The notes under the pieces are model-generated. The model made no database searches and was not told the DNA's origin. It saw only the letters and a list, made by a program, of their open reading frames with translations. From an uncultured bacterium (lineage in GTDB: Bacteria > Patescibacteriota > Minisyncoccia > UBA6257 > GWB1-50-10): 64,000 nucleotides of DNA. Below are positions 37,449 to 61,392 of the stretch, in pieces (within the stretch, counting starts at the first letter, position 1; the number at the start of each line of letters is the position of its first letter). Position numbers and translations under genes: made by a program. The stretch lies in contig OY970216.1 in assembly GCA_963713955.1 (NCBI GenBank), forward strand, positions 296,850 through 360,849, written 5' to 3'.

Positions 37449-37486
37449 AGAAGAAGCCTGTTCAAAAACAGGCTTCTTCTTTTTGG
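37449..37486. terminator. Rho-independent terminator (gaagaagcctgtt-caaaa-acaggcttcttc followed by ttttt), bidirectional position
   Basis: 13-bp perfect stem followed by a T-run, between convergent genes. Confidence 0.6.
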
Positions 37487-37493
37487 TGAGCGC

Positions 37494-40496: not shown

Positions 40497-40524
40497 TGAG
40501 TTTATTATATCCCCGGCGGACTTA

Positions 40525-40572
40525 TCCCCAAAATCTATGGCTTCCCGCTCTCGTTATTGAGAGCGGGAAGCC
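40525..40572. repeat. family-3 palindromic hairpin, copy 2 (ggcttcccgctctc-gttatt-gagagcgggaagcc)
   Basis: In the divergent promoter region between the helicase-nuclease (-) and the 40633 gene (+); a partial third arm gagcgggaggcc follows. Confidence 0.5.
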
Positions 40573-40632
40573 ATATTTAGAGCGGGAGGCCAAATATTTG
40601 GTGGATAACTTCGTTCGTGTTACTATGGGAAT

Positions 40633-41067
40633 ATGTCTTGGGAGCTTTTTGAGAAGGTGAAAAACATAGGCCTGCCGGCCGGATCCTACGCCATCTTCGG
40701 GAGCGGCCCCATGGGGGTGAGGGGAATCCGGGATTGCGGGAACATGGACGTCGTCGTGACGGACGAGCTCTTTGACGAATACCGTGGTATGTCCGGCTGG
40801 GACTTAAAAGACTCAAGAGACGATGAATATTTGTTGAATAACGGCATTTTCCTCTGGAAAGGCTGGGGGCCGGGTGAGTGGAACGTCAAGCAATTGATAG
40901 AAGATGCCGAAATGATAGAGGGGTTGCCCTTCGTGCGGCTCTCAGATGTCCTCAAATGGAAGAAATTAAGCGGAAGGGAAAAGGACTTGAAAGACATAAA
41001 ATTGATTGAGAGTTATTTGGACAAGAATGACGGGAAGATCGCGCCCGTGGCAAAATCCCCGAAATAG
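40633..41067 (+). CDS. nucleotidyltransferase-fold protein (minimal NTase, GS..DxD)
   Basis: IFGSGPMGVRGIRDCGNMDVVV fits the hG[GS]x9-13DxD pol-beta NTase signature; 144 aa; the rest is unassigned. Confidence 0.4.
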   Translation: MSWELFEKVKNIGLPAGSYAIFGSGPMGVRGIRDCGNMDVVVTDELFDEYRGMSGWDLKDSRDDEYLLNNGIFLWKGWGPGEWNVKQLIEDAEMIEGLPFVRLSDVLKWKKLSGREKDLKDIKLIESYLDKNDGKIAPVAKSPK

Positions 41068-41090
41068 GATAGAATAGGAAAAGTTTTCTT

Positions 41091-41107
41091 GGGCCTATGG
41101 TACAGTG
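41091..41107 (+). repeat. 17-nt partial copy of the tRNA-Ala 5' end (gggcctatggtacagtg versus gggcctatggtctagtg)
   Basis: Direct repeat 395 nt upstream of tRNA-Ala, bracketing a structured region and the GIY-YIG gene. Confidence 0.5.
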
Positions 41108-41232
41108 TCCCGATAATCTCAAAATCTTTGATTTTGTGAGATTATCGAGGATCCGCGATTTTGTAGATTTGCTTCGCAAATACAAAATCGGGAGCAAAAC
41201 GCGGCATTCGTCCCGATTTCTAAAATTTTGGA

Positions 41233-41478
41233 ATGTTTTTCACCTACATTCTAAAATCGTCACTTAACAACTCCTATTACGTTGGGAGTTGTAAAGACAT
41301 AAAAGAGAGATTAAGATTGCATAATGGCGGACGCGTAAGATCAACGAAGAGATGGATACCTTGGCGATTGATGCATCTTGAGTTATTTGAGACCTTGCGA
41401 GAAGCTAGGCGAAGAGAATTGCAAATTAAATCTTGGAAAAAACGGAAAGCTATTGAGAATTTGATAGAACAACAATAG
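41233..41478 (+). CDS. GIY-YIG nuclease family protein (UPF0213/YhbQ-like)
   Basis: FTYILKS...YYVGSC.D...RL..HN motif; 81 aa. Confidence 0.8.
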   Translation: MFFTYILKSSLNNSYYVGSCKDIKERLRLHNGGRVRSTKRWIPWRLMHLELFETLREARRRELQIKSWKKRKAIENLIEQQ

Positions 41479-41485
41479 CTTTGAC

Positions 41486-41556
41486 GGGCCTATGGTCTAG
41501 TGGCAGAACGGCGCATTCGCATTGCGCAGACGGCGGTTCGATTCCGCCTAGGTCCA
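41486..41556 (+). tRNA. tRNA-Ala (anticodon CGC)
   Basis: Hand-folded: acceptor gggccta/taggtcc with a G3.U70 pair, anticodon stem gcgca/tgcgc, loop uuCGCau, T-arm ggcgg-ttcgatt-ccgcc, discriminator A. Confidence 0.75.
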
Positions 41557-41743
41557 CAGGAGTTGAGTACATACTCAACCCATGATGAAATAACCGCATA
41601 AATGCTAGGGTTGTTTAAGGAAGGTCCCGTTATAAGGCGATACTTTTCGTTTAGGCCAGACTTCCCCAGGTTCTAGATATTTCCTATGGGAAACCAAAAT
41701 AAAAGACCCTGGTAAAAATCAGGGCCTTCCGCTTTCTTGGATT

Positions 41744-42343
41744 TCATCGTTGAATTGGTGCATATTTCTCGGCTATAAAATCAGCGATTTGTTTTAAGAT
41801 TCTTCGCCCTATGGGCATCGGAGCAGTGTAAACAGCTTCAACAAATGAACGGCCGCACCGCGCACAATGATTTGAATCCCAAAGCACATCCCGACACCAG
41901 TTGCACCAACGGAAAACTGGTTTGCCACACTGCAAGCAGTAATGGTCTCCTTTAAGCAAAGGAGTTCCACAGCCACGGCAAGTTTTTCTAATGTCAACTT
42001 TTACAGCCTCTTTTTTGACGTGTTTTGAAACACCGAGGCGTTTGTCGGCAATCCGTTTCGCAAATTTGCGTCCTATGTAGATCAGCAATCCCTCGAGTAG
42101 GCCTGCGCCAAGATACAAATATGCTGTGTAGGATGGAATCTTCCATAAATGGAACGCGCTATCAAGGAATCCGATTAGGCCAACAAAAAGAATAATAGAA
42201 ATCCCAGCGACAAGGAACCTATTAAGAGCGCGTTGTTCTATGTAGTTTCTAAGATCCCATCCCCAACGGTCCCCACACTCCTCGCAGAAATCAAAGCCGA
42301 TAATTTCACAGCCACAGTGTATGCAGTGCGACATCATAATCAC
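41744..42343 (-). CDS. zinc-ribbon-rich membrane protein
   Basis: Four CxxC pairs (CIHCGC..CEEC; CRGC..CLQC; CNWC..CARC) and 2 TM helices; 199 aa. Confidence 0.45.
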   Translation of the reverse strand: MIMMSHCIHCGCEIIGFDFCEECGDRWGWDLRNYIEQRALNRFLVAGISIILFVGLIGFLDSAFHLWKIPSYTAYLYLGAGLLEGLLIYIGRKFAKRIADKRLGVSKHVKKEAVKVDIRKTCRGCGTPLLKGDHYCLQCGKPVFRWCNWCRDVLWDSNHCARCGRSFVEAVYTAPMPIGRRILKQIADFIAEKYAPIQR

Positions 42344-42346
42344 CTC

Positions 42347-42577
42347 CTATCTTTTAAGTTGTAAAAGACCATTTCGTATTTTGCACTCCTTCCCGATGAA
42401 GTGACGCAGATCGATCTTAGAAGAAACTCCTGACTGCAAAGTTATAAATTCTTTTTTCCCCGAGAACAATCCCGCCTCGATTTCGAGAACTATGTTGCCT
42501 TCACAACTGTAAACGTCTTTTACGGTACCTTCGATATTTGCAGGCTTCCATTCAACGAAAACAAGACAATCGCTCAT
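42347..42577 (-). CDS. hypothetical small protein
   Basis: 76 aa; operonic (3-nt gap and 4-nt overlap) with the flanking zinc-ribbon genes. Confidence 0.35.
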   Translation of the reverse strand: MSDCLVFVEWKPANIEGTVKDVYSCEGNIVLEIEAGLFSGKKEFITLQSGVSSKIDLRHFIGKECKIRNGLLQLKR

Positions 42578-42825
42578 TTTACAACCTCCCTCTTTCCGCC
42601 ACTCGTTAATCTGTGAATTAGGGCCAGAAGTAGTTGGCGCAACAAGCTTGGTGGTTTGTCTTTAGTTGCACTGTCCAGCGAACGACCGCAGGAAGGACAA
42701 TAACTCTCCAAGATTTCGGTACTACAGAAATTACACCTTGGGAAGGGTCGTGTGTTTTTCCCGCATTTTTTACAAAACTTCTGGTCGTCGGTTGCCAAGC
42801 TTCCGCAAGAAATACAGCGTCTCAT
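42574..42825 (-). CDS. double zinc-ribbon protein
   Basis: CISCGS..CKKCGK and CNFCST..CPSCGR. Confidence 0.45.
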   Translation of the reverse strand: MRRCISCGSLATDDQKFCKKCGKNTRPFPRCNFCSTEILESYCPSCGRSLDSATKDKPPSLLRQLLLALIHRLTSGGKREVVK

Positions 42826-42936
42826 AGATTCCTCCTTTTCTTTTGGTTTGTGAACTTAACTAACCGAATCATGTCTATTTGTTATATATCTGTCAATCTG
42901 TTGACGAAAACCGACAAAAAGACTATTATGGGCTGA

Positions 42937-43746
42937 ATGATCCAAATCTACAGAACTCTTAAAGAGGTGGGGATACCGGAAATGGCCAGCCGTATATATG
43001 AGCAGCTTCTCGAATCCGGCTCTGTTTCGGCTAGACAGCTGGCCGAAAAACTGAACGTTCCTCGCCCCTCCGTTTATGACAATCTTAAACTCCTCATAAA
43101 GAACGGATTAGTGGTGGAACGAGAAGAGGAGAACAAAAAAATATTCGGCGTTGATGACATTAGAAACCTGTCACATCTCTTCCAGTCAAAAATCGAGCTC
43201 CTCAAAGAACGAGAGAGCGAGTTGAAGGAATTTTTGTCTACCCTTACTAAACAGGCGAGGTCTTTCGAGCCGAAAATCAAGTTCTACTCCGGTTCGGAGG
43301 GCATCAAGCAGGTTTTGAACAACCTTCTTTGGTACGACAATATCGAAACGTTGACGATGTGGCCGATCAGTGAGATAGTCGATGTTTTAGGCAAAGAATA
43401 CTTGGCGGATCTGAATCGCCGCCGCATCCGCCAGAAGATCTCCATCAGGGGCATTTGGCCGCAAGATAAAACCATTAATTTCAAGGATTATCCGTTCCTT
43501 GGTGTTGGTAGGGGTCACCTGCGGGAATTGTGTTTGGCGCCCAAGGGCATGACATGGCAGATGAGTTACTGGCAGTATGCCGACAAGGTCGCTTTCATAT
43601 CTTCCAAAAAGGAGCTGTTCGGTTTCGTGATCCATAGCCGGGATTTTGTCACCCTGACAAAATCCCAGTTTGAAGTTATCTGGAAAATTTCAAAGCCGAT
43701 CCAGCCGCAGCCTCAATACACGGATTCATTCTTGGAGACGGTGTAG
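42937..43746 (+). CDS. TrmB-family transcriptional regulator
   Basis: N-terminal wHTH ASRIYEQLLESGSVSARQLAEKLNVPRPSVYDNLKLLIKNGLV plus TrmB-like C-terminal domain. Confidence 0.65.
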   Translation: MIQIYRTLKEVGIPEMASRIYEQLLESGSVSARQLAEKLNVPRPSVYDNLKLLIKNGLVVEREEENKKIFGVDDIRNLSHLFQSKIELLKERESELKEFLSTLTKQARSFEPKIKFYSGSEGIKQVLNNLLWYDNIETLTMWPISEIVDVLGKEYLADLNRRRIRQKISIRGIWPQDKTINFKDYPFLGVGRGHLRELCLAPKGMTWQMSYWQYADKVAFISSKKELFGFVIHSRDFVTLTKSQFEVIWKISKPIQPQPQYTDSFLETV

Positions 43747-43922
43747 GATTCACATACTGAAAAATCCAATAATGACTGAACAAGCAATTTCTCCCACCTA
43801 TCATTGTGGATAGAATCTCTGTACCATGGATCACATGCTGGTAGGAGAAGAACTTTCTTTTTTGATTTTCTCCCGCACAGAGGTTCTAACAAATTCTATT
43901 AGCCTCCACAGGAGTTGAATAA

Positions 43923-45473
43923 ATGAAGTTCTATTTATCATCTTACAGGCTTGGAGAAAAAACCGAAGAATTAAAAAAGCTGGTTCCTGCCGGAAGAATC
44001 GGTTATATCCCCAATGCTCTCGACTCTTCCGGGGTGGACCCGGGGCGGAGAAGGAAGCACATTGAAGAAGATATTAATTCGTTGCGTGAGCTCGGGCTCA
44101 AAGTTGAGTTGATTGACCTGCGCGACTACTTTGATAAACACAATGATTTAAAGAGCAAGCTTAAGGAACTTGGTGCGGTTTTTGTGAGTGGGGGCAATGT
44201 TTTTGTTCTGCGCCAAGCGATGAGATTGAGCCATCTTGACGAGATTCTAAAAGAACTGCGAGAGAAAAATAATTTTCTCTATGCAGGTTACAGTGCCGCT
44301 GGATGCGTTCTCGCGCCGAACCTCAAAGCATATGAGATTGTGGACACAGTACAAACCCCATACAAGGAGCTGAAAGAAGCCATTTGGGATGGATTGGGAT
44401 TTATTGACTTCGCTTTTATGCCGCACTGGAATTCCGATCATCCGGAATCCGCAGACATTGAGAGAGAGATTGAGTATTGTAAAGAGAACAACATCCCCTA
44501 TAAAGCGATTAGGGATGGGGAGGTTATAATTATGGAAAATAAGACAAAACCAATTCTTATAACCTGTTATGTGAACCCCGACCTTGATGGCGTCGCCAGC
44601 GCAATCGCCTACGGCGAATTTTTGCAGAAAACGGGCAAGAACGCCGTCGTCAGGATCATCGGTGAACCGCACGACGAAGCGAAGTATGTTTTAAACCGCT
44701 TTGGCTTCGCGTATCCCCAAACGATATCTAACGCGGACGATTTCGACGAAGTAATACTCGTGGACACGAGCAACCCCAACGGACTCGAAGGTAAGATTGC
44801 TCCCGAGAAAGTCATCGAGATCATTGATCATCGCAAAGTTCATGATGCAGGTGAATTTCCGAACGCCAAGGTGCAGATCGAGCTCATCGGGGCGGCCGCT
44901 ACGCTTATCGCGGAAAAATTCATGCGGAACAACATTGCCATCTCGAAAGAGTCCGCGACACTCGTTTATGGGGCGATAATTTCAAATACTCTCAACTTCA
45001 AGAGTGGCGTCACCACCGACCGCGACAGGGAAGCGGCCGCGTGGCTCAATAAGGTTGCGGGATTGCCCGAAGATTTCTGGAGAGATCTGTTTACTGCGAA
45101 ATCCGACTTATCCGGTGGGAAGCTTGCTGAGCGAATCGAGAGCGATTTCGCGTGGTTCGTGATGGGCGGAAAGAAAGTCGGCGTCGCCCAAATCGAAATG
45201 ATCGGCGCGAAGGAGCTGCTCGATGAGCGAAGCGGCGAAGTAGTTCAAATCCTCGACAGAATTAAGAAAGACATGAACCTGGATCACATTTTCCAAAACA
45301 CGATAGAGCTGGAAAACGCAAAGAACTTTTTTGTTGCCCAAGATCTAGACACGCAAAAACTTTTGGAAAAAGTTTTGAGTGTGCGATTTGCCGGCGTCGT
45401 CGCGGAGCGGCCCGATCTCATCATGAGGAAGCAAATTGTTCCCTTGTTGAAGGAAGAGTTGGATCGGGAATAG
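43923..45473 (+). CDS. fusion protein: N-terminal peptidase S51 (PepE-like) domain plus C-terminal DHH-superfamily phosphoesterase (family II pyrophosphatase/NrnA-like)
   Basis: N-terminal half: VSGGNVFVL and YAGYSAAGCVLAPN align with PepE (VGGGNTFQLL and YIGWSAGANLACP; my recollection of E. coli PepE). C-terminal half: NPDLDGVASAIAY (DHH motif I) and IIDHRK (motif III-like). Confidence 0.6.
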   Translation: MKFYLSSYRLGEKTEELKKLVPAGRIGYIPNALDSSGVDPGRRRKHIEEDINSLRELGLKVELIDLRDYFDKHNDLKSKLKELGAVFVSGGNVFVLRQAMRLSHLDEILKELREKNNFLYAGYSAAGCVLAPNLKAYEIVDTVQTPYKELKEAIWDGLGFIDFAFMPHWNSDHPESADIEREIEYCKENNIPYKAIRDGEVIIMENKTKPILITCYVNPDLDGVASAIAYGEFLQKTGKNAVVRIIGEPHDEAKYVLNRFGFAYPQTISNADDFDEVILVDTSNPNGLEGKIAPEKVIEIIDHRKVHDAGEFPNAKVQIELIGAAATLIAEKFMRNNIAISKESATLVYGAIISNTLNFKSGVTTDRDREAAAWLNKVAGLPEDFWRDLFTAKSDLSGGKLAERIESDFAWFVMGGKKVGVAQIEMIGAKELLDERSGEVVQILDRIKKDMNLDHIFQNTIELENAKNFFVAQDLDTQKLLEKVLSVRFAGVVAERPDLIMRKQIVPLLKEELDRE

Positions 45474-45519
45474 CTGCCGGTTTTCGCCGGAATGCCGGAT
45501 CCGTGGTAAACTGTAAACG

Positions 45520-45843
45520 TTGCCTATAATCATGAAAAAATCGGACTATCTCTTGAAAAGCTTCATAAATGCCGCAGCTACATTTGTTTATGTATCCGCC
45601 GTGGCGTGGTTCGGTTTCAACAGCCAGGCGATTTTCGGTAAGCAGCAAACCTTTCTCGCTCCGCTTCTCATGCTTTTGCTCTTTGTTGTGTCGGCGTTGA
45701 TAACAGGCCTCCTGGTTTTAGGGAAGCCGATCCATTTGTACTTGAGCGGCCTCAAGAAAGAAGCGTTCGTTTTATTCTTCGCCACTTTGGTGTGGCTCGT
45801 TTTGTTTCTGCTTGTTGTTGCCGCTGTGCTCTTGCCACGGTAA
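45520..45843 (+). CDS. small 3-TM membrane protein
   Basis: 107 aa, hydrophobic. Confidence 0.35.
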   Translation: MPIIMKKSDYLLKSFINAAATFVYVSAVAWFGFNSQAIFGKQQTFLAPLLMLLLFVVSALITGLLVLGKPIHLYLSGLKKEAFVLFFATLVWLVLFLLVVAAVLLPR

Positions 45844-45892
45844 TAATTCGGGGTTTGAAAGTTACCTCTGCCGCCGGTATAATGACTCAATA

Positions 45893-46180
45893 ATGTTAAC
45901 CAAAAAAGATTTGGAGAAATTGGCTGATCTTTCCCGGATGAAGCTGAAGGAAGGGGAAGAGGATAAGTTACTGCATGACTTGGGCGGCATCTTGGATCAT
46001 TTCGAGGAACTGAAGGAATTGAATACCGACGAGGTTCTGCCGATGAACGGCGGGACGTTGTCGTCGAACGTCTGGAGAGATGACGAGCCGACGAACGCGC
46101 TGGACGGGAAAGCCGCCAGGGAAGAATTCCCGGAAACGAAAGACGGATACTTGAAGGTTCCACCGGTCTTTGAGGAGTAA
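45893..46180 (+). CDS. gatC: Asp/Glu-tRNA amidotransferase subunit C
   Basis: MLTKKDLEKLADLSRMKLKEGEE...LKELNTDEV is the GatC pattern; start trimmed to ATG 45893; 4-nt overlap with gatA. Confidence 0.8.
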   Translation: MLTKKDLEKLADLSRMKLKEGEEDKLLHDLGGILDHFEELKELNTDEVLPMNGGTLSSNVWRDDEPTNALDGKAAREEFPETKDGYLKVPPVFEE

Positions 46181-46211
46181 TCGCGAATATACGTTTTACC
46201 AAATAACGCGA

Positions 46212-47654
46212 ATGGACTTAAACGAACTGACCATAAAAGAATTCCATAAGGGGCTTGAGGGAAAAAAGTTTTCCGCGAGGGAAGTGACGGCAGCATTTTT
46301 GAAGGCCATAAAAGAGAAAGACGGTGAATTGAATGCCTACCTGTCTGTTTTTGAGAGTCAAGCTCTTGAAGCAGCCGCGGCCGTGGATAAAAAAATCGCT
46401 TCGGGCGGGGTGGTTCCGGCCTTGGCCGGCGTGCCATTGGCCGTGAAGGATAACATGCTTATTGAAGGCACGAAAACCACCGCCGCTTCCAAGATACTGG
46501 AAAATTACGTGGCTTCATACGATGCGACCGTGATAGGAAAACTCAAGAAGGAGGACGCCGTGTTTTTGGGAAAGACAAATTTGGACGAGTTCGCCATGGG
46601 ATCCTCGACGGAATATTCCGCTTTCAAGAAAACCAAAAATCCCCATGACCTGACGAGAGTCCCGGGTGGATCTTCCGGCGGTTCGGCCGCGGCAGTCGCG
46701 GCTACTATGGCGATGGCAGCCTTGGGGAGCGATACGAGCGGTTCCATATGTCTTCCGGCCGCGTTCTGCGGCGTTGTGGGACTTCGCCCATCGTACGGCT
46801 CGGTATCGCGCTCCGGACTCATAGCCATGGCTTCAAGCCTTGACCAGATAGGTCCGATAACCAAGACAGTGGAGGACGCGGAAATTTTATTCAGGAGCAT
46901 CGCGGGAAGAGACGATCTGGATTCCACAAGCATCGACTATTCTTACGAAGAAGTGAAAGATTTGGAGAACGTCAAAAAGTTGAGAGTGGGTTTACCGAAG
47001 GAATTCTTCGTATCGGGTCTCAGCAAGGAAATCGAGGAGGGCATCGAGTCCGCCATTCAAAAGCTCAAAAAGCTTGGGTTGGAATTCAAGGAAGTGAACC
47101 TTCCCCATGCGAAATACGCCTTGTCTTGTTATTACATCATTATGCCCGCGGAAGTGAGTTCAAACCTCGCCCGTTTCGAAGGAGTGCGGTACCCGGGAAT
47201 ACCCGAGGTGAGAAAAGAAGCGGAGAGTTTGAGTGATCTTTATCTCAGAACACGGGGTGTCGGATTCGGACTCGAACCGAGGCGGCGCGTTTTGCTCGGG
47301 ACGTTCGTCTTGTCGGCCGGCTACTATGACGCATATTACGCCAAAGCCCAGAAAGTAAGACGCTTGATCAAAAACGATTTTGACGATGCATTCAATGACG
47401 TTGATGTAATCATGGCGCCGGTTACGCCGACGCCGGCATTCAAATTAGGAGAAAAAGTTTCGGATCCGCTGATGATGTATCTGTCAGATATTTTTACGAC
47501 ACAGACAAACCTCGCCGGAGTTCCGGCTCTATCACTCCCGGTTAAGAAATACGAACTCGGTGGGGGAGAATTGCCCGTAGGGTTCCAGCTGATCGGAAAA
47601 CGTTTCGAGGAAAACAAAATTCTCGCGCTCGGCAAACTTTACGAGAAAAGCTGA
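46212..47654 (+). CDS. gatA: Asp/Glu-tRNA amidotransferase subunit A
   Basis: Amidase signature GGSSGGSAAAVAA; Ser-cisSer-Lys triad context. Confidence 0.9.
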   Translation: MDLNELTIKEFHKGLEGKKFSAREVTAAFLKAIKEKDGELNAYLSVFESQALEAAAAVDKKIASGGVVPALAGVPLAVKDNMLIEGTKTTAASKILENYVASYDATVIGKLKKEDAVFLGKTNLDEFAMGSSTEYSAFKKTKNPHDLTRVPGGSSGGSAAAVAATMAMAALGSDTSGSICLPAAFCGVVGLRPSYGSVSRSGLIAMASSLDQIGPITKTVEDAEILFRSIAGRDDLDSTSIDYSYEEVKDLENVKKLRVGLPKEFFVSGLSKEIEEGIESAIQKLKKLGLEFKEVNLPHAKYALSCYYIIMPAEVSSNLARFEGVRYPGIPEVRKEAESLSDLYLRTRGVGFGLEPRRRVLLGTFVLSAGYYDAYYAKAQKVRRLIKNDFDDAFNDVDVIMAPVTPTPAFKLGEKVSDPLMMYLSDIFTTQTNLAGVPALSLPVKKYELGGGELPVGFQLIGKRFEENKILALGKLYEKS

Positions 47655-48319
47655 TTAGCCTTTTCGAGATCTTCAGGAGTTCCCACCGGGAACCATAATT
47701 TTGCGAATACAGCTTTAACTTTGTAATCTTTTATCATTTTCGAAAGTGCGTAGGAAAGATACTTCTCTTTCCCTTCCGGCACCCCGGGCTCATAATCGAA
47801 AATCTCGCCGTTCAAAAGGAGACCATTTGCAAGAACAATGTTCGACAGCGGGTTTTCCGGCTTCTCGATGATTTCTTTTATGTTACCGTCGGGGTCCAGC
47901 GTGACAACGCCGAATTTTTGCGGTTCGTTCGACGTCGAAACGGCAGCGGCAAGATCGTACTTTACCATCTCGCGGAGCGTCGCGGGGTCTATGAGATCGT
48001 CTGAATAGAAGACGAAGAATTTTTCCTCTCCTTCAAGTTTTTTCCGGCAGAGCTTCAAGGCTTCCATGGTTCCGGAAGCGGGATTTTCCTGAAAGACGTA
48101 GTTTACCCTTTTTCCCGTGAATTCACCTCCCAGGAAGCTTTTTATTTGATCGCCTTTGTATCCGATAACGACGATTATCTCCGTGACCTCGGGAGGGAAA
48201 GCGGATATGATGCGTTCGATGAGCGGCCTGCCGGCTATTTTAAGAAGCGGTTTGGGAATTTCGTTTGTGAGAGGCCGCATCCGGGTTCCCAAGCCGGCGG
48301 CCAAAATAACTGCTTTCAT
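47639..48319 (-). CDS. sugar-phosphate nucleotidyltransferase (NTP_transferase family)
   Basis: MKAVILAAGLGTRMRPLTNEIPKPLL is a canonical N-terminal motif; start trimmed to ATG 48317-48319 to avoid tRNA-Asp. Confidence 0.8.
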   Translation of the reverse strand: MKAVILAAGLGTRMRPLTNEIPKPLLKIAGRPLIERIISAFPPEVTEIIVVIGYKGDQIKSFLGGEFTGKRVNYVFQENPASGTMEALKLCRKKLEGEEKFFVFYSDDLIDPATLREMVKYDLAAAVSTSNEPQKFGVVTLDPDGNIKEIIEKPENPLSNIVLANGLLLNGEIFDYEPGVPEGKEKYLSYALSKMIKDYKVKAVFAKLWFPVGTPEDLEKANQLFS

Positions 48320-48331
48320 GAATGTCTTCTG

Positions 48332-48406
48332 CGGGGTGGACGGGATTTGAACCCGCAACCTATTCCGTGACAGGGAATCGTGCAAACCAGGTTACACCAC
48401 CACCCC
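48332..48406 (-). tRNA. tRNA-Asp (anticodon GTC)
   Basis: Hand-folded: acceptor ggggtgg/ccacccc, anticodon stem attcc/ggaat, loop cuGUCac, T-arm gcggg-ttcaaat-cccgt; 75 nt. Confidence 0.8.
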
Positions 48407-48451
48407 ACGCTCCATAAGATTAATTTATATTGAAGTATTTTTCAAATACGG

Positions 48452-50206
48452 CTACACAACTTCCGCTTGATAGCACTGATCGCAATATATCCTTAGTTTT
48501 CTTCCTGGGTTGTACGCTGTCTGAATCTTTTTGGAACATCTCAAACAGGTAGAATCCACGAGTTTATATGGGTTCCTTTTCTTGAATCTGTCCATGAGGC
48601 GCACCTGCGGGTGCAGCCTGGGAATCGGGATTGAATGTTTCCGGTAGAACTCCAATTCTGATTTTATGATTCTGAACGGCTTTTTAGACTCCTCGCATAT
48701 GATAGCAAAGTTCAGAATATCGTCTGAAGCGTCTTTGATGTTCGTGGGCGTCTTGTCAAGTACTTTGAGATCCATCGACTCTATTCTGAGGTTCTCCGGT
48801 TTCAGATTGACGTCCATTTCTCTCTGTTCTTCCGGACTCAGGGGCGAAATGGCTTGAGCATAGGTGTCCTCGTAGTAGAAAAATGAATCATGGAGCGGAA
48901 GGAACTCTCCATATACGCCGTCCGAAACCATGCGGGTTTTAATCGTGTCCACTAAGCGCCAGTATTCGTCTTCGGAATACTGCTTGTTTAAGATGCAATA
49001 CTTCTTCTTTTTCAATCCCGAGCATCCGAAGCAGTAACGGCAATCGGAGCACTCAAAGGAGTATTCGACCTCTGTGCAGTCGTTAACGAAGTAAGACGAG
49101 ATCACTTTGTTCACCGATAACCCTTCGATGGTGTTGTAACATTGTTCGCCCGGCCCGAATATAGTCACATCCATACAATCTTCCGCGCCGATGAAATCCT
49201 GGCTGTATCGGACGTTCTCGTTTTTGTAGAAGGTCAAAACCCACTTGGCGCTCATGCCATGAAAGGACTGGAAACAATTTTTGCAGTCCCTCAGATGGTC
49301 GCCCGTCGAATTGGGAGAACTGATGGTGAGCGTCGCCCTGAAGATAGCGTTCGTATCCATGAAGCTGCTGAACTTCTTCCGGAACTCTTCAGAGACCGCG
49401 CTGTCTCCCAAGTCTATGCGAAAAATTCTCTCTTTGTAATCTGCTTCTGAAAGCTGTTCGTTGAGATAACAGAACTTCTTATTGCGCAGGTTGACGCATC
49501 CGAAACAATCCTGGCAGTTATGGCAGTCGAATAGAAATGCCGAATTGGAGCAGTTACTGGAATTTTGGATGTACTTCGAATTATAGATATGATCCGAATC
49601 TATGATTTCATAGGAATACTGAACGTGATCGGCGCCGAGGAGATCGATTGAATCTTGGGAATAAAGAACCCAGAGGCCATAGGAGATGTTTTCGGCTATG
49701 CCGATCGTGGACGAGAGATAGCAGTTCTTTATGCTGAGGCTATCGACCGTGTATTCGCTATTCACAACGTCCTTGTTGTATCTCGCCAATGCTCTGTGAG
49801 GAACGTCTTGTATTAACTTGAGGAGCTGATCTTGGAACTTTCCGTTGGGGTCGTAGTCACGACCGAAAGACATCGGGTCCCATTGGGCAGGATTCCACCA
49901 ATATTGATTGTCGTAGATTTTGTATTTGTTCTCCTCGCTTATTTGGGATACGACTCTTTCCTCGGGGTGAGCCGAGCACCCTTTTTTGTAAAACTGAAAG
50001 ATATTGGCCATCATAGCCATCCGCTTTCTCATCCGGCAATCGGGGCATTCTCGGGGCGGCAATATATTCAGTTTTTCTACAAACCTAATATCTTCTTCGG
50101 ACAATTCGAACTCCTCGTTAGAGTTTGAGCATCTCCTTTTACCCGGGGTGGTCGTTTTCCAAACCTCTCGCAACACTTCATCGAACTTCGGTGTCTTTGA
50201 ATCCAT
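48452..50206 (-). CDS. hypothetical Cys-rich protein with internal beta-helix-like repeats and terminal zinc-ribbon-like motifs
   Basis: 584 aa; repeated units SNCSNSAFLFDCHNCQDCFGCVNLRNKKFCYLNEQLSEADY and YSFECSDCRYCFGCSGLKKKKYCILNKQYSEDEY; N-terminal CPDC and C-terminal CLRC..CDQC; no family recognised. Confidence 0.45.
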   Translation of the reverse strand: MDSKTPKFDEVLREVWKTTTPGKRRCSNSNEEFELSEEDIRFVEKLNILPPRECPDCRMRKRMAMMANIFQFYKKGCSAHPEERVVSQISEENKYKIYDNQYWWNPAQWDPMSFGRDYDPNGKFQDQLLKLIQDVPHRALARYNKDVVNSEYTVDSLSIKNCYLSSTIGIAENISYGLWVLYSQDSIDLLGADHVQYSYEIIDSDHIYNSKYIQNSSNCSNSAFLFDCHNCQDCFGCVNLRNKKFCYLNEQLSEADYKERIFRIDLGDSAVSEEFRKKFSSFMDTNAIFRATLTISSPNSTGDHLRDCKNCFQSFHGMSAKWVLTFYKNENVRYSQDFIGAEDCMDVTIFGPGEQCYNTIEGLSVNKVISSYFVNDCTEVEYSFECSDCRYCFGCSGLKKKKYCILNKQYSEDEYWRLVDTIKTRMVSDGVYGEFLPLHDSFFYYEDTYAQAISPLSPEEQREMDVNLKPENLRIESMDLKVLDKTPTNIKDASDDILNFAIICEESKKPFRIIKSELEFYRKHSIPIPRLHPQVRLMDRFKKRNPYKLVDSTCLRCSKKIQTAYNPGRKLRIYCDQCYQAEVV

Positions 50207-50290
50207 ACCTATAATCTTATCATCTGGTGGATGCTTTTAAAGCTGCATAACATCGCCAAAACACCCACCCTGTAAGGAATTCGAGCACCC

Positions 50291-50605
50291 CTAACTTGAG
50301 TTAGTCTGGTTTTGGCTCGTTGTTACACTGAACCTCGTTATCCAAACAAAAAGCAACCCCACCACAAAAAGAATCGCTCCCGGAGCGGCATCGGAAATAT
50401 TTATTCCTAAGAGAGTCGTTGTCCAGTTCGCTAGTGGTCCGGTTATTCCGTGCAAGAAGAGAATTATCCCTCCGATCACGCAAGCAAGCCCCAAGATAAG
50501 ACCAGCTATCGAGTATATGAACTGGAATTTGACGGCCTTTCTCCAAAGTTCCCTGTCTTCGGGATTTTGGGGAGGAGTTACTTCCAAAGTTTTGAATATT
50601 CTCAT
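50291..50605 (-). CDS. small 3-TM membrane protein
   Basis: 104 aa. Confidence 0.4.
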   Translation of the reverse strand: MRIFKTLEVTPPQNPEDRELWRKAVKFQFIYSIAGLILGLACVIGGIILFLHGITGPLANWTTTLLGINISDAAPGAILFVVGLLFVWITRFSVTTSQNQTNSS

Positions 50606-50663
50606 GCTGTAATCATAAAGACCGATCGGCCTTTTCTGTTAAAGGATTTCTAGTTGATACGCT

Positions 50664-51047
50664 CTACACAAATCCTTTGTAAAGCAAGATCAAGCCTAGG
50701 ACAAAAGCGACGATTCCACCGAAGATAAGTATGCCGTCCCTGTTCGCCCACTTGTATACCGAAACGGCAGAATTCGGGAAGAGGAGGAGGAAAGCCCCCT
50801 TGATCAAGGTCAGCCAGCCCAGAATCGTAATGAGCAATGCCAACAAGCCAGAAGCCCAGATATTGTTCAGTACAACGAGCACAGCACCCATGGACAAGAT
50901 GAGAAAACCCCACAACCATAAGAACCCTCGGTCCTGAACTGTCTTTTCAAGAGCGGCAGCTATATTCTTCCGGTCGGTAACTACCGATAGGCCCATTACT
51001 GCGAGAAGAATCCCCAAGAATTGGGCAATAGCGATGGAGGTGTTCAT
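50664..51047 (-). CDS. small 4-TM membrane protein
   Basis: 127 aa; preceded by conserved motif A (51119-51177). Confidence 0.4.
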   Translation of the reverse strand: MNTSIAIAQFLGILLAVMGLSVVTDRKNIAAALEKTVQDRGFLWLWGFLILSMGAVLVVLNNIWASGLLALLITILGWLTLIKGAFLLLFPNSAVSVYKWANRDGILIFGGIVAFVLGLILLYKGFV

Positions 51048-51118
51048 TTATTTATGTTGATGATATAAGACCGACCTTTTGATTATTATAGCACTCTTAT
51101 GGGACTATTTTTCTTCTT

Positions 51119-51177
51119 CCTGTTCGAACGTGTGGACTTACTCAACTTCAGCCATTCCATGAGTTTGTGCAATCATT
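51119..51177 (-). promoter_or_regulatory. conserved ~59-nt upstream motif, copy A (about 80% identical to 52079-52137)
   Basis: Minus-strand reading ..cacaaACUCAuggaauggcugaagUUGAGUaaguccacacGUUCGAACag..; upstream of the 127-aa membrane gene. Confidence 0.35.
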
Positions 51178-51183
51178 CAGGAA

Positions 51184-51972
51184 TTAATTTTCGTCGTCGA
51201 TGAACAACTCATAATACGAAAGCATGATAGGGGTTCCCCAAACGATCCAGAAAGTAAATTCCTCAAAAGGGAATGTCAATCCGAAAAGCTGGATTGTCCC
51301 TATGTATTGTCCCGGGAAGCGCCATTGGTTCAGTTTAAGAGCCGTGAGTTCGAAGCTCAAGAACAAAAAAATGTTGAAAACATCTGCTTTCAGTAACTTT
51401 CCGACCATATGGGGGTCTTTGAAGATGACATAAAAGAATGGCAATGCTCCCATAAAACCTATTGCAAGGTATGCATAGTGCCATTGGAGAAGCGAAGGGG
51501 CCGTGAGAAAAATACCCACGACAAGTACAAAAAGTATCAGGGCAAAAATAGCCGCTTTCTTGAAACGCTTCGACATTTTCTCCGATCGCTCGTGTTCGAA
51601 AAAGTGTTCGTAGTAGATAATAGTGAACGATATCCAGAATACATACCAGATAAGCACATCAATGGGCACAAGACCGAATATCTTATTTGGGAAAACAAGT
51701 TGATTTTGCGGTGCCCATGACCACGCTTTATTGAATTCTGCCAAGAGGTCCACAATGAATAGGGTAATAACCCCCGTCGCCAGCGTCGCACCGAGACGTT
51801 TCAATTGTTTTGGCTTGCGGATAAAGAGGTAGAAAGCGGGAATCGCGAAGAAAACGATTGTAGAAGTCAAAAATATTGCCTTGAAATAGAGGATAAGAGG
51901 TATGGAGAAAAGTACCCACCCGACGATGACTAGGAAGTCAACCCGTACCTTATTTTTGAAAATCGCATCCAT
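51184..51972 (-). CDS. polytopic membrane protein (about 7 TM)
   Basis: ORF 51184-52104 trimmed to Met MDAIFKN, which has a GAGGAG SD and TATAAT upstream; the N-terminal extension would overlap conserved motif B. Confidence 0.45.
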   Translation of the reverse strand: MDAIFKNKVRVDFLVIVGWVLFSIPLILYFKAIFLTSTIVFFAIPAFYLFIRKPKQLKRLGATLATGVITLFIVDLLAEFNKAWSWAPQNQLVFPNKIFGLVPIDVLIWYVFWISFTIIYYEHFFEHERSEKMSKRFKKAAIFALILFVLVVGIFLTAPSLLQWHYAYLAIGFMGALPFFYVIFKDPHMVGKLLKADVFNIFLFLSFELTALKLNQWRFPGQYIGTIQLFGLTFPFEEFTFWIVWGTPIMLSYYELFIDDEN

Positions 51973-52009
51973 TTTTTGCTCCTCTGATACTCTTATTATA
52001 CAAACAAAC

Positions 52010-52035
52010 ACCCACCTTGTAAGGTGGGTGTTTTT
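52010..52035. terminator. palindromic hairpin cacccacc-ttgtaa-ggtgggtg plus T-run (terminator-like); related half-sites at 50258-50277 and 53694-53719
   Basis: 8-bp perfect stem followed by ttttt on the plus strand and ttgtttgt on the minus strand. Confidence 0.4.
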
Positions 52036-52078
52036 CCTAAGTAAGCAACAGTAAGCAACTTGTTGCGAAGCCTGAACG

Positions 52079-52137
52079 CTGTTCGAACTTGCGGACTTGC
52101 TCAACTTCTGCCGTTCAGTGAACTTGTGAAATCATTT
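52079..52137 (-). promoter_or_regulatory. conserved ~59-nt upstream motif, copy B
   Basis: ..cacaagUUCAcugaacggcagaagUUGAGCaaguccgcaaGUUCGAACag..; compensatory changes relative to copy A at a putative 5-bp stem (A-U to G-C, C-G to U.G). Confidence 0.35.
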
Positions 52138-52224
52138 TTGTAGAAAGGGGATTAGGAAGAAAGAGAGGAAAAAATGACGGAAGGGACAAAAAAACAAAAG
52201 CCGCCCCAATGGCGGTTTTGTTTT

Positions 52225-52551
52225 TTACTCCACTAATCTTATTTCCCGGTCGAATACGCTCGCTATCTTATGGAGCGTCGCGATGGAGAAATTGTGGGTG
52301 CCGGATTCGATCCTCGCGATGACCGATCTCGGCATCTCGGCCTTCTCCGCGACTTCTCCCTGGGTCATGTGCCGCTTCTCCCGGAGAGTCCTGATCTCAT
52401 GTGCCAGCTTGATCCGGCTCATTTCCTCGGTAAAGGCCTTCCTAAATTCAGGATTCTTCTTCCTCTCCATGATTACTGCTGAGAGAGGAGTGAATTTAAC
52501 AACTTCTTTATTTTTTCTAAGTCCAAAATCTTTCATCTTTTCTATTTTCAT
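52225..52551 (-). CDS. higA: HigA-like antitoxin (XRE-family HTH)
   Basis: HTH TQGEVAEKAEMPRSVIARIESG; directly downstream of the HigB-like toxin; followed by a terminator hairpin. Confidence 0.7.
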   Translation of the reverse strand: MKIEKMKDFGLRKNKEVVKFTPLSAVIMERKKNPEFRKAFTEEMSRIKLAHEIRTLREKRHMTQGEVAEKAEMPRSVIARIESGTHNFSIATLHKIASVFDREIRLVE

Positions 52552-52571
52552 TGTAATCTTAATTTTCTTAT

Positions 52572-52892
52572 TTACTTCTTGATGTTTGTTACCATCCGAT
52601 ATACCTCTTCCGCCCGTTCTATGACCCTTTTGGGCGTCTTCCGGCTTTTCTTTCGGAATGCATCCACGGCATAGATGATGCCCTTCTGTTGGAAATACAC
52701 TATCCGGTACTGGCCGACCGTGAGTTCCATAATCTTGCCCTTGAGGGGCTTGATGTCGAGTTCCTCAGTCAGGCCATTCTCAAGAGACTCGAGGTGGGCG
52801 AGTATTTTCGCAACATCTTTAGTGGAAAGACCTTCCAGGTATTCGGTGACGTCACCGAGCTGCAGTAGCTTCATTAGGTTGTCTAGGTGCAA
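52572..52892 (-). CDS. higB: HigB/RelE-like toxin (phage Gp49/DUF891 family)
   Basis: DIKPLKGKIMELTVGQYRIVYFQQKGIIYAVDAFRKKSRKTPKRVIE matches the Gp49-like HigB core; toxin-first HigBA order. Confidence 0.65.
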   Translation of the reverse strand: MHLDNLMKLLQLGDVTEYLEGLSTKDVAKILAHLESLENGLTEELDIKPLKGKIMELTVGQYRIVYFQQKGIIYAVDAFRKKSRKTPKRVIERAEEVYRMVTNIKK

Positions 52893-52915
52893 GAATCGAC
52901 CTTTGATGCTAGTGT

Positions 52916-52929
52916 AGCATATATGCTAT
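52916..52929. promoter_or_regulatory. 14-bp perfect palindrome tagcatatatgcta upstream of higB (candidate autoregulatory operator)
   Basis: Read from the sequence 24 nt upstream of the higB start. Confidence 0.4.
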
Positions 52930-53108
52930 AGGTGTCAAGAGCGTATCTTCCAGATTTTTTACCCCCTTGCTATCTTTTCGTATATACCCCCTCTCCCTCA
53001 TCGGGGAGAGTAAACTTAACCAGGGCTTCTCTGCGAGAGAGTTGCTGGAAACCGACGATGCATGTTATCCTGATTCAAAAGGCCGGTAAATAAGAAAATG
53101 CTAATAAA

Positions 53109-53627
53109 ATGGGAGGCTTTGAAGAAGTGGGTTCACAAAAATTAGAGCAGGACAAGTTTGCGTCTTTCCGAGAGCGAGCTAAAGATGTCGCTACTGTCGG
53201 AGAGGGATTAATGAATATAGATGCTGCTCACGAAGGGACATTTGCGGATCAAAGACGATTGGAGCAGCTAGCCACAACCCATGAAGAAGAAAGCAGACAA
53301 CTTAACCGGACGGGAGGGCAGCAAAGATCTTTCGCCGAAAGTGCTGAAAGATTGCGTGAGGCGGCTCGAAACAACAAGGAGTGGATAGAGGCTAGATTAA
53401 ATATCCTTTCCACTGAGGAAAGGCAGAGTTACTTGGCAAAAGAGCAGGATCTCGTCGCCCGTTTTGAGGCAACGCAAAAGAACTTAGACAATTACAAGCC
53501 GAGCGATGAACCGGAGCTTATTCGAAATATGCCGGTTCGAAAAAAATTAGAGATCGAGTTCAACGCCGCCAAAGAAGCACTCCGAATACACGAGGCGAGT
53601 TTGATTGAACTGAGTCAGGGGATTTAA
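53109..53627 (+). CDS. hypothetical coiled-coil protein
   Basis: 172 aa, charged and helical; no family. Confidence 0.35.
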   Translation: MGGFEEVGSQKLEQDKFASFRERAKDVATVGEGLMNIDAAHEGTFADQRRLEQLATTHEEESRQLNRTGGQQRSFAESAERLREAARNNKEWIEARLNILSTEERQSYLAKEQDLVARFEATQKNLDNYKPSDEPELIRNMPVRKKLEIEFNAAKEALRIHEASLIELSQGI

Positions 53628-53849
53628 TCTTATCCTCACGATTCTGGATGCTTTGAAGACAGCTGAATATACTGGCAACTTCCCAGAAAACAAGAACACC
53701 CACCTTGTAAGGTAGGCATTCTGGGCAATCTCAACAAGTTGTCACAAGCTTCAATGTTTTCGACAAGTAATACTTTTATATTGACAGGTGTGTAGTTCGG
53801 TTGTAGCCTTACTGCATCATCTTTCGCAATTTTAAAAAGGAGCGAGTTA

Positions 53850-54095
53850 ATGCAAAGACTAGTTTCGGTTACAGAGAGTGTATGCGAATCCATGAAGGTA
53901 CCCTTGTGGGTAATGGAAGCTGCCGTTGGGAAGCAAGTGCCGGCTGAGGAAGGACCGAACGAGGAATTGTGGCTCAAGAAAATCGATTTGATCTCGGTTC
54001 TTGAAAAGAAAAGTGAGCGTCAGGCGGCAGACTGGATCCGCAGGAATGTAAACCAAGATACCATTGTAGTGCCTCAAGTATTACTTCAGGCGTAG
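53850..54095 (+). CDS. hypothetical small protein
   Basis: 81 aa. Confidence 0.3.
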   Translation: MQRLVSVTESVCESMKVPLWVMEAAVGKQVPAEEGPNEELWLKKIDLISVLEKKSERQAADWIRRNVNQDTIVVPQVLLQA

Positions 54096-54193
54096 GCGTA
54101 CACAGAGCAGGCCCAGGCAGTTGTAGCCGGACCTCCCTTATTTTATACCCCCGATCTCATGAGGTGGATATTTTTGCCGAAGTGGGCAACTTG

Positions 54194-54265
54194 TTGCGGG
54201 GGCAGGATTCGAACCTGCGACCTCCGGGTTATGGGCCCGACGAGCGACCGCTGCTCCTCCCCGCG
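54194..54265 (-). tRNA. initiator tRNA-fMet (anticodon CAT)
   Basis: cgcgggg 5' end with a C1-A72 mismatch; three G-C pairs closing the anticodon stem (tcggg-cccataa-cccgg); nearly colinear with my recollection of E. coli tRNA-fMet. Confidence 0.8.
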
Positions 54266-54333
54266 GTTCATAAAACAAATGAATTATACTTGTAAAGAGG
54301 GTATAAGTCAATTTATAATTGAATAAATCATTT

Positions 54334-54407
54334 GGCTGGGTAGCTCAGTCGGTTAGAGCGTGGCCCTCATAAAGCCGAGGTCGTGGGTTCGAATCCCACC
54401 CCAGCCA
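54334..54407 (+). tRNA. tRNA-Met or tRNA-Ile2 (anticodon CAT)
   Basis: Acceptor ggctggg/cccagcc, D-arm gctc-agtcggtta-gagc, anticodon loop cuCAUaa, T-arm gtggg-ttcgaat-cccac; 74 nt. Confidence 0.75.
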
Positions 54408-54429
54408 CAAAAATGTATATCATAAAAAT

Positions 54430-60369: not shown

Positions 60370-61392
60370 TTATTTGGTGAAGTAGAGGAATTCCAAGATG
60401 ATGAGAATGAACCAGCCGACTTGGAGGATAAACCACGCGATGATTTCCACCCACTCCGCCCGCTCCTTGCTCGAGACGGTGAAATTCTCGACAAAAGAAG
60501 AGTAGATCCCGTCCAGCGAATCCAATTTTTCTTTTATGGTCGAACGCCACTCGCTGATCTTGAGTTTCTTGCTCGCGAGGTCATAAAATCGCGCCGAGTA
60601 CCAGTCGCCGATGAGTTTGATATCCCGTTCCAAAGACTCGAAAGCCGAAATCCAGGTGATGCGCCTCTGTAGTATGTCTCTCGCGGTTTCGGAAATAATC
60701 TTGTTTTTGGAAAACAGTCTTTTCTTCTGGGGTGCCATGAGTTGCTTTGAGATGTTTTCGATCTGGTCGTCGAGTCTCCGGTCGAGTACTCGGTGTCTCA
60801 GAAGCTGGAGATTCGCTAAGGTCAGGAGTTCCACCGCCAAACCAAAATCGCCTTCGATGTCGAAGAGGAACGCACCGTCCCAGTCTATGACGGACAAGTC
60901 GTGTTTGGCATATTTTATTTGGGTGGAAAGAGTATACTCAATTTCTTTCGGGTCGAGCGTAAGATTCTCCGATTTGAGGAGGGCGGCCATGACCGGCGCA
61001 TGCGTGAGAAACTGTTCCGGGTCGCCCTCGTATCCCGAGACCTCGAAGATGGAATACATTTCACTCATCTCCTCACTGCCGCTCCATTCTTTGAGAATCC
61101 GATAGCTCTCATCGTACAACTTCTTCTCCCAGCCGCTTGTCTCGCTTTCGTCGAAAATGTCTTTGAGTTCAAGGTTCGCCTCGACGACGAGTATGGAAGG
61201 GGCGTAGCCGAGGATGGAAAAAACCACGTCCCGGTCTTCTATTTTCTTCTTCTCTTCACCGATCACGACGAGGTGGGGCACCGAAGAGGGGAAATAATGC
61301 GGTCCGCTTTTCTGCGTTTCGGATTTGAATATTTTCCCCCTCACGGCCTTGGGCACTTCCGAAAGAACCAGCGTCACGAGTTGATTTTTCAT
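60370..61392 (-). CDS. hypothetical protein with C-terminal TM helix
   Basis: 340 aa, acidic and soluble with C-terminal WFILQVGWFILIILEFLYF; no family recognised. Confidence 0.4.
   Translation of the reverse strand: MKNQLVTLVLSEVPKAVRGKIFKSETQKSGPHYFPSSVPHLVVIGEEKKKIEDRDVVFSILGYAPSILVVEANLELKDIFDESETSGWEKKLYDESYRILKEWSGSEEMSEMYSIFEVSGYEGDPEQFLTHAPVMAALLKSENLTLDPKEIEYTLSTQIKYAKHDLSVIDWDGAFLFDIEGDFGLAVELLTLANLQLLRHRVLDRRLDDQIENISKQLMAPQKKRLFSKNKIISETARDILQRRITWISAFESLERDIKLIGDWYSARFYDLASKKLKISEWRSTIKEKLDSLDGIYSSFVENFTVSSKERAEWVEIIAWFILQVGWFILIILEFLYFTK

Follow-up and report, generated by a model that had tools for sequence, protein, structure and literature searches.

A variable tRNA-flanked islet with a HigBA-like toxin–antitoxin pair in an uncultured member of the Patescibacteria

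How does a short block of unfamiliar genes come to lie between two tRNA genes in an otherwise housekeeping region of a small bacterial genome? The question is raised by a 64-kb stretch of contig OY970216.1 (hereafter the window, that is, the whole stretch that was analysed), which derives from an uncultured, Paceibacteria-like member of the Patescibacteria, or candidate phyla radiation (CPR). In the window, 5,786 bp separate the genes for tRNA-Asp and an initiator-type tRNA-Met (tRNA-fMet) and carry eight open reading frames (ORFs), which encode a Cys-rich protein of 584 amino acids (aa), three membrane proteins, a HigBA-like toxin–antitoxin (TA) pair and two further products. An initial annotation took this interval, hereafter the islet, for a horizontally acquired island with a cargo that could act in host interaction. 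Here we report a computational analysis of the islet, which suggests that it is probably a passive variable hot spot, a small mosaic assembled by several separate insertions or rearrangements, and neither one self-mobile element nor one functional operon.

The slot occupied by the islet is conserved in position and differs in content. The nearest PheS among the species representatives of the Genome Taxonomy Database (GTDB), which do not include the source genome, is 66% identical to that of the window, and six Paceibacteria-type relatives with PheS identities of 60-66% were compared. All six retain the backbone GatC–GatA–tRNA-Asp…tRNA-fMet–tRNA-Met–PheS–PheT. The gap between tRNA-Asp and tRNA-Met spans 1023 bp in L009, 618 bp in L012, 523 bp in L013, 996 bp in L014, 3874 bp in L015 and 2790 bp in L016, compared with 5786 bp in the window. 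Each of these six gaps has the GC content of its surroundings and contains, on the - strand, a gene of ~148 aa for an NlpC/P60-like protein, of which neither a copy nor a remnant exists in the whole 64-kb window. Conversely, tblastn searches with the islet proteins found no match at the six loci; relatives of the islet genes occur only elsewhere, and the content of the slot here is unique among available genomes. The synteny comparison proposed in the initial annotation thus found a different interval in six of six relatives, rather than the same genes everywhere. The tRNA-Asp to tRNA-fMet slot is variable among relatives at roughly the family level, and because these relatives are distant the variability applies at that level only and does not establish recency.

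The arrangement in the window is real and not an assembly artefact, because L001, which was assembled independently from a different read set, agrees with window positions 41529-54225 at 99.98%. The contig ends of L001 fall inside tRNA-Ala (41529) and tRNA-fMet (54225), a coincidence that strain variation or repeats there could explain. Housekeeping genes make up the flanks: to the left GatCA and a nucleotidyltransferase, to the right PheST, and at greater distance RecG, UvrD, AddA and the CCA-adding enzyme. Elsewhere along this backbone, a block of tRNA-Lys/Arg/Pro/Ala genes lies upstream of GatCA in the window (32119-41557) and downstream of PheT in L009 (9928-13130) and L014 (15614-18763), a large rearrangement in the lineage of the window.

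The islet genes are distributed separately from one another. No two of them were found together in the other loci examined, and the three membrane proteins, which had been described as a set, never co-occur there. Nor are the genes only lineage-specific, as had been proposed: homologues of the 584-aa protein number more than 2,196 across the Patescibacteria, the 104-aa protein has homologues with 77-86% identity in other CPR genomes, and the 127-aa protein is shared by CPR and Acidobacteriota. The 104-aa homologues lie on Patescibacteria contigs with 36-45% GC, near fmt/def and in unrelated contexts. The 262-aa family comprises 69 homologues, the best of which are 63-68% identical, sparsely scattered in CPR contigs and in three unrelated gene contexts. 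The window 262-aa protein has an Insig-like fold and gives no match to the lycopene cyclase domain PF18916 at E <= 0.1; 5 of 26 homologues do match it (best E 7.4e-6), which suggests that the protein is distantly related to this domain. For the 172-aa protein, a near-orphan, a search of 1.84 billion representatives gave three credible homologues. The 81-aa ORF, for which the searches made returned no homologue or family match, is doubtful as a gene.

The 127-aa protein, which has 51 homologues, offers the clearest case of a separate history. In L092, the nearest relative found, an 89% identical copy occupies a different locus, beside a cluster encoding DUF8128 and type IV coupling proteins (T4CPs), and retains the promoter (TGnTATAAT, 51093..51085 in the window) and the 5′ untranslated region; other proteins shared by L092 and the window are 63-79% identical. 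Homologues in several metagenome-assembled genomes labelled Terracidiphilus (Acidobacteriota) are 68-70% identical and lie on large, genuinely non-CPR contigs (61% GC) whose gene content is typical of free-living bacteria. Since an identity of ~70% is far above the 43-47% seen for PheS across phyla, the 127-aa gene is best read as a product of inter-phylum transfer. The CPR and Terracidiphilus sequences are interleaved in a neighbour-joining tree, from which no direction of transfer emerges; a conflict between the phylogeny of this protein and the species tree is nevertheless suggested. On this interpretation, the protein common to CPR and Acidobacteriota would be a concrete trace of cross-phylum gene exchange and a possible clue to a host.

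The 584-aa protein belongs to a far larger family and looks native to the phylum. Its predicted structure (predicted local distance difference test score 84, predicted template modelling score 0.85) bears out the beta-helix-like internal repeats and terminal zinc-ribbon motifs that had been noted. The N terminus comprises a helix followed by a zinc ribbon (C26, C29, C54, C57), the centre forms an internally duplicated beta-solenoid (residues 160-298 and 308-458), with one six-Cys cluster of the form C-x8-C-x2-C-x2-C-x2-C-x8-C in each half, and the C terminus contains a second zinc ribbon (C554, C557, C575, C578). The motif F-x-I-x3-E-L-x-F-Y-x-K-x3-P-x-P at the N terminus recurs before the C-terminal zinc ribbon. 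The protein had been taken for a secreted or surface protein. It has neither a signal peptide nor a transmembrane (TM) segment (maximum 19-residue hydropathy 0.87), and its zinc ribbons are built on four invariant CxxC pairs; as modelled, it looks like a cytoplasmic metal-binding protein. No solved structure is related to the family.

The homologues of this protein are full-length (570-600 aa) and carry the labels Paceibacteria and Giovannoni-, Kuenen-, Sung-, Lipton-, Gribaldo- and Gracilibacteria. The nearest, 77% identical, lies in another gene context (L002). In several genomes the paralogues form tandem arrays, of three members in L003/L004, six in L005/L006, seven in L090 and three in L091, which are bracketed by ATPases of the VirD4/TraG-like (DUF87, TrwB_AAD_bind, TraG-D_C) and DUF8128 types, some of them with the same zf_Tbcl_2 zinc finger at their ends as the 584-aa family. 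Array paralogues are 27-37% identical to the window protein, and the orthologous array member is 54-58% identical. The L005 array is placed between dnaK and dnaJ. Within its 64 kb, the window has a single copy of the family, with no second copy or pseudogene and no VirD4-like or DUF8128 ATPase. Among viral contigs, the only match to the family was a fragment of 38 residues at one end of a contig of 6 kb, which was disregarded.

The composition of the islet is partly atypical. At a GC content of 0.451, against 0.505 outside, the islet is the lowest-GC 5.8-kb stretch in the window (mean 0.499, s.d. 0.021). The statement that it is AT-richer than its flanks therefore stands, with the reservation that the dip is modest, only ~2.3 s.d. 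under the mean, and that the GC content at 41-43 kb (0.431) falls below that of the islet itself. Moreover, the low GC content of the 584-aa gene is confined to codon positions 1 and 2 (GC3 = 0.60), and therefore reflects amino-acid composition and not foreign origin. Codon usage was scored as a synonymous-codon likelihood relative to the other 48 window genes (reference mean z = -0.27, s.d. 2.3), so that the reference consists of genes of the 64-kb window only. By this measure, codon usage is atypical in five of the eight ORFs (104, 127, 262, 172 and 81 aa; z <= -3.3) and typical in the 584-aa gene and higBA (Table 1). Codon usage is thus not uniform across the interval, in line with the initial annotation.

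Two other places in the window deviate as well. A patch at 41233-42577 around tRNA-Ala (41486-41557) has a GC content of 0.43 and atypical codon usage, and may be another small islet; it contains ORFs of 81 aa (z -4.6) and 76 aa (z -3.4) and encodes a 197-aa protein (z -6.6) with a double-zinc-ribbon match below threshold. No ORF in the window departs further in codon usage than one of 173 aa at 9253-9774 (z -7.4), whose GC3 is low (0.45).

Two families of repeats divide the islet, which confirms the repeated internal boundaries seen earlier and extends one of them considerably. The 17-mer ACACCCACCYTGTAAGG occurs at 50261, 52008 and 53696, with no further copy in 64 kb and none expected from 100 shuffles. 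Two of the three copies form full hairpins with T-runs, that is, predicted - strand intrinsic terminators with 12-13-bp stems and a 26-nucleotide (nt) hairpin sequence, AACACCCACCTTGTAAGGTGGGTGTT; the copy at 50261-50277 is a half-site, comprising the loop and the 3′ arm only. The triple motif of the initial annotation is thus present in three copies and above chance, with a complete hairpin in only two. These hairpins have ordinary G+C stems and U-tails, and the promoter of the 262-aa gene (CTTACA-17-TATAAT, 52023..51995) overlaps the terminator at 52006-52033. When the leader of the 584-aa gene is compared with the 53.7-kb copy, the similarity runs ~50-70 nt past the 17-mer, up to GATAAGATTA, and makes up a direct repeat of 67-89 nt (50212-50277 and 53625-53712) with no other match in the window. 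Even without the 17-mer core, this leader repeat scores 36, against 13.5 +/- 2.3 for shuffled sequences, none of which reached this value in 1000 trials. It brackets a 3.35-kb block (50278-53624), from the stop of the 104-aa gene to the stop of the 172-aa gene, inside which most of the atypical genes lie.

The second family, previously seen as a ~59-nt motif pair, was confirmed as a 58-nt direct repeat that is above chance (30-nt core, E = 6e-5 versus the whole window) and brackets the 262-aa gene. Neither copy has a significant RNA fold, and none is shared between them (shuffle test, z -0.3 to -1.0); the motif is missing upstream of the 127-aa orthologue in L092 and upstream of the 262-aa homologues. 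We rejected a riboswitch or leader RNA formed by the repeat and the downstream hairpin because of these shuffle-level folds, the missing motif upstream of the homologues and the lack of a matching Rfam family. A coding remnant was rejected as well, as the substitutions show no third-position bias. Integron-like attC cassettes were likewise dismissed, as there is no integrase, no RYYYAAC…GTTRRRY pair and no significant or shared hairpin in the 58-nt repeat. A perfect 14-nt inverted repeat, ACGCTCCATAAGAT, occurs at 48407-48420, directly beside the tRNA-Asp 5′ end, and at 52265-52278, inside higA; with E about 0.003, this repeat at the left edge of the islet probably arose by chance.

The toxin of the TA pair matches PF05973 (E 2.6e-12, 47 bits; cutoff 23.9) and the antitoxin PF01381 (E 1.3e-13, 51 bits; cutoff 23); among the PHROGs, the toxin matches phrog_2523 and, weakly, the RelE-like phrog_1213. 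The NCBIfam models provide no equivalog for either protein, the matches of HigA being sub-threshold only (for example, the Y4mF-family antitoxin TIGR03070 at 35.7 bits; cutoff 71.65), and no solved HigB matches in sequence. The start of higB is ambiguous between TTG at 52892 and ATG at 52874. The operon places the toxin first, separated from the antitoxin by a 20-nt gap, with one promoter and one terminator. A perfect 14-bp palindrome, TAGCATATATGCTA (52916-52929), overlaps the promoter spacer and the first part of the -10 hexamer, and is the presumed operator of HigA. As read from the sequence, the layout is typical of an autorepressed type II module, and the toxin-first pair with its promoter palindrome was correctly recognized in the initial annotation, which also placed the tRNAs, every ORF and both repeat families at the positions where we find them.

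The layout of the islet, its synteny and codon bias, its repeats and the distribution of its genes are shown here; an order of events can be inferred from them. The slot would have lost its ancestral gene, for a peptidase of the NlpC/P60 type seen in relatives, and the native 584-aa gene, a dispersed member of its phylum-wide family, would have come with its leader into the slot downstream of tRNA-fMet. A 3.35-kb block carrying higBA, the three membrane-protein genes and the 172-aa gene may then have inserted into the leader, duplicating ~70-90 nt, and the 58-nt pair and third hairpin core would be marks of additional events. Site-specific or hairpin-directed recombination in trans would be compatible with the hairpin breakpoint at 50277/50278 and with an 18-nt partial copy of the tRNA-fMet 3′ junction at 52050-52067. 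HigA probably binds the promoter palindrome, and an autoregulated TA pair would select against deletion of the block. Every gene is served by a separate promoter or terminator, as piecemeal capture, and not an operon, would lead one to expect.

Six of the islet genes lie on the - strand, and the 172-aa and 81-aa ORFs lie on the + strand (Table 1). The - strand tRNA-Met is identified as the initiator by a C1:A72 mismatch and three G-C pairs adjoining the anticodon loop, both read from the sequence, and has a promoter TTGACT-17-TATAAT at 54311..54283.

Table 1. Features of the islet and its boundaries, with related loci in other genomes (positions without a locus name refer to the window)
Feature	Positions	Strand	Codon z	Remarks
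tRNA-Asp(GTC)	48331-48406	-		left boundary, 5′ end toward islet; ARAGORN, Rfam 62 bits
584-aa Cys-rich protein	48452-50206	-	-1.9	26 Cys
Left leader repeat copy	50212-50277	-		leader and promoter region of 584-aa gene; holds half-hairpin 17-mer core 50261-50277
104-aa membrane protein	50291-50605	-	-4.0	two TM segments
127-aa membrane protein	50664-51047	-	-3.3	about four TM segments
58-nt direct repeat, copy B	51120-51177	.		between 262-aa stop and 127-aa promoter
262-aa polytopic membrane protein	51184-51972	-	-5.5	start is an internal ATG at 51972
Hairpin/terminator, second 17-mer copy	52006-52033	-		perfect 12-bp hairpin and T-run
58-nt direct repeat, copy A	52079-52136	.		83% identical to copy B
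higBA intrinsic terminator	52197-52219	-		strong, after higA
HigA-like Xre/HTH_3 antitoxin, 108 aa	52225-52551	-	-0.8	PF01381
HigB-like toxin, Gp49 (RelE/ParE-type), 100-106 aa	52572-52892	-	-1.2	PF05973
higBA promoter TTGACA-16-TACACT	52911..52938	-		sigma70-like
172-aa ORF	53109-53627	+	-6.2	helical, coiled-coil-like
Right leader repeat copy	53625-53712	-		with full hairpin terminator 53693-53722, the third 17-mer copy
81-aa ORF	53850-54095	+	-4.3	gene finder call in L001
tRNA-Met(CAT), initiator-type	54193-54265	-		right boundary, 3′ end toward islet; ARAGORN, Rfam, sequence reading
tRNA-Met(CAT), elongator-type	54334-54408	+		divergent from tRNA-fMet; ARAGORN, Rfam
Terracidiphilus 127-aa homologues	L093/L094 6001-6381			
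584-aa paralogue arrays	L003 10001-16439; L005 2976-13488; L090 4489-16701; L091 8001-13632			

Several observations weigh against a mosaic of insertions. The relatives are distant, so the differences at the slot could be ordinary long-term rearrangement and not island-type acquisition. No mobility gene lies in or beside the interval, and similarity to phages, plasmids or viral contigs was not found. The GC dip is small, and within the 584-aa gene it stems from amino-acid composition. The codon usage of higBA is typical even though the pair lies inside the repeat-flanked block, a comparison for which the codon test has little power, as the genes are short. The copies of the repeats are 17-30% diverged, with indels, and are therefore not fresh target duplications. 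Finally, the proposed order of insertions is one among several possible histories. The designation of the islet as a horizontally acquired island consequently survives in part: the variable slot, atypical codon usage, repeats and TA pair agree with it, and the lack of any mobility, phage or plasmid signal, the modest GC dip and the native-like 584-aa gene do not.

The strongest of the alternatives is that the islet is ordinary, vertically inherited lineage-specific DNA, shaped by fast turnover of gene order in CPR bacteria, by the composition of membrane proteins and small ORFs, and by reuse of terminator and promoter motifs. It draws on the distance of the relatives, from which the window is separated by further rearrangements, such as that of the tRNA-Lys/Arg/Pro/Ala block across PheST, on the normal codon usage of the 584-aa gene and higBA, on the two 17-mer copies that are plainly predicted to be functional terminators, and on the lack of mobility genes in the islet. 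Vertical descent accounts poorly for a 127-aa protein that is ~70% identical to Acidobacteriota proteins, when PheS is 43-47% identical across phyla, and whose gene lies at a different locus in L092; for five genes that are 3-6 s.d. off the codon usage of the window; and for a leader repeat that extends ~50-70 nt past the hairpin and flanks the block with most of the atypical genes. We consider it rather unlikely.

Somewhat less probable still is that the islet is the remnant of one integrative element, an island or degraded prophage whose integrase was lost after it had entered at the tRNA-fMet 3′ end, with HigBA as its addiction module and the hairpin cores derived from attachment (att) sites. 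The 3′ end of tRNA-fMet does point into the islet, the half-hairpin breaks between the 5′ arm and the loop, as expected if recombination occurred at the hairpin, and both a TA module and several genes with atypical codon usage are present. Furthermore, positions 52050-52067, which lie within the islet between copy A of the 58-nt repeat and the hairpin at 52006-52033, form a direct repeat with the tRNA-fMet 3′ junction (54181-54198; 16 of 18 nt identical, 13 nt perfect). This repeat covers only 5-6 nt of the tRNA and is near chance level (E = 0.01 by BLAST; by our estimate, chance would produce ~0.4 matches of this kind in 6.6 kb), which makes it a weak candidate for an att-like scar; the islet has no convincing tRNA-derived att repeat, and the leader and 58-nt repeats are not tRNA-derived. 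Scans with Pfam, NCBIfam, PHROGs and PADLOC detected no integrase, recombinase or transposase in the eight ORFs, none lies beside the interval, no excisionase was found, and the only signal of a defence system in the islet is a generic helix-turn-helix. A phage or plasmid origin was rejected, because a blastn comparison of the whole islet with phages and plasmids returned no match, nor did comparisons of the 262-aa and 127-aa proteins and the 17-mer with viral contigs. In addition, the genes are distributed separately and never travel together, which argues against a single cargo, and the 584-aa gene is native-like. IS elements (insertion sequences) are active in the clade though none lies in the islet, as L092 carries one, with an rve-type transposase and HTH_Tnp_1, at 15214-16277 between the M23 peptidase and SecD. 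At the corresponding site the window has a different, 340-aa gene (60370-61392), whose match to L092 is limited to the first 96 residues and lies at 14927-15214, next to the IS.

The last alternative, a coherent host-interaction module in which a surface or secreted Cys-rich protein acts with the three membrane proteins, appeals to the tight arrangement of four genes on one strand, to the dependence of CPR bacteria on hosts and to a 127-aa gene common to a possible host phylum, and is very improbable and, as an earlier proposal, largely refuted, given a 584-aa protein with cytoplasmic-type zinc ribbons and no signal peptide or TM segment, whose homologues adjoin VirD4-like ATPases and not these membrane proteins, and four genes that are never together at the other loci examined and are separated by terminators and separate promoters.

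A passive hot spot that collected separate pieces thus remains our preferred reading of the islet. A stronger lead than the islet itself, and one that lies mostly outside the window, is the very large 584-aa family, with over 2,000 proteins conserved over their full length and arrays beside orphan VirD4-like ATPases. In the Patescibacteria, 5,713 orphan homologues of VirD4-like T4CPs have been counted, just 148 of them near virB4, and the role of these abundant ATPases is an open question (PMC12102498). Our full-text literature search for the names of the domains found in the 584-aa family and in the neighbouring ATPases returned no relevant paper. Tentatively, the family and the orphan VirD4-like/DUF8128 ATPases might form an undescribed, Patescibacteria-wide system, in which a coupling-protein-like motor could act on the paralogues as diversified substrates or use them as adaptors; in that case the window copy would be one dispersed member that has come to lie in a recombination hot spot. 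The resemblance to the orphan coupling proteins of that survey (PMC12102498) lies in the ATPases that adjoin the arrays and in the shared zf_Tbcl_2 finger, whereas the window copy is solitary and lacks such an ATPase, and the Cys-rich family is not described in the paper.

Among other known systems, PF18916 and Insig-like polytopic membrane proteins come closest to the 262-aa protein. The TA pair resembles HigBA type II systems in its toxin-first order, its combination of PF05973 and PF01381, its presumed palindromic operator within the promoter and its own terminator; it differs in that the toxin has no sequence match to a solved HigB and no NCBIfam equivalog. As a whole, the islet compares with tRNA-associated genomic islands and islets. 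Unlike these, it measures only 5.8 kb, lacks an integrase and a clear att duplication derived from a tRNA, shows no similarity to phages or plasmids, includes a 584-aa gene native to the phylum, and abuts at its left edge the 5′ end of tRNA-Asp and not the 3′ end of a tRNA. Like them, it is tRNA-bounded and variable among relatives, with partly atypical codon usage, a type II TA pair and mosaic direct repeats. Mosaic islets that lie between tRNA genes and carry a TA pair are an already known, ordinary kind of feature, and what distinguishes this one is its small size, the lack of a mobility gene and its CPR setting; it suggests that tRNA-flanked slots gather foreign and relocated genes without resident mobility genes even in 0.8-Mb CPR genomes.

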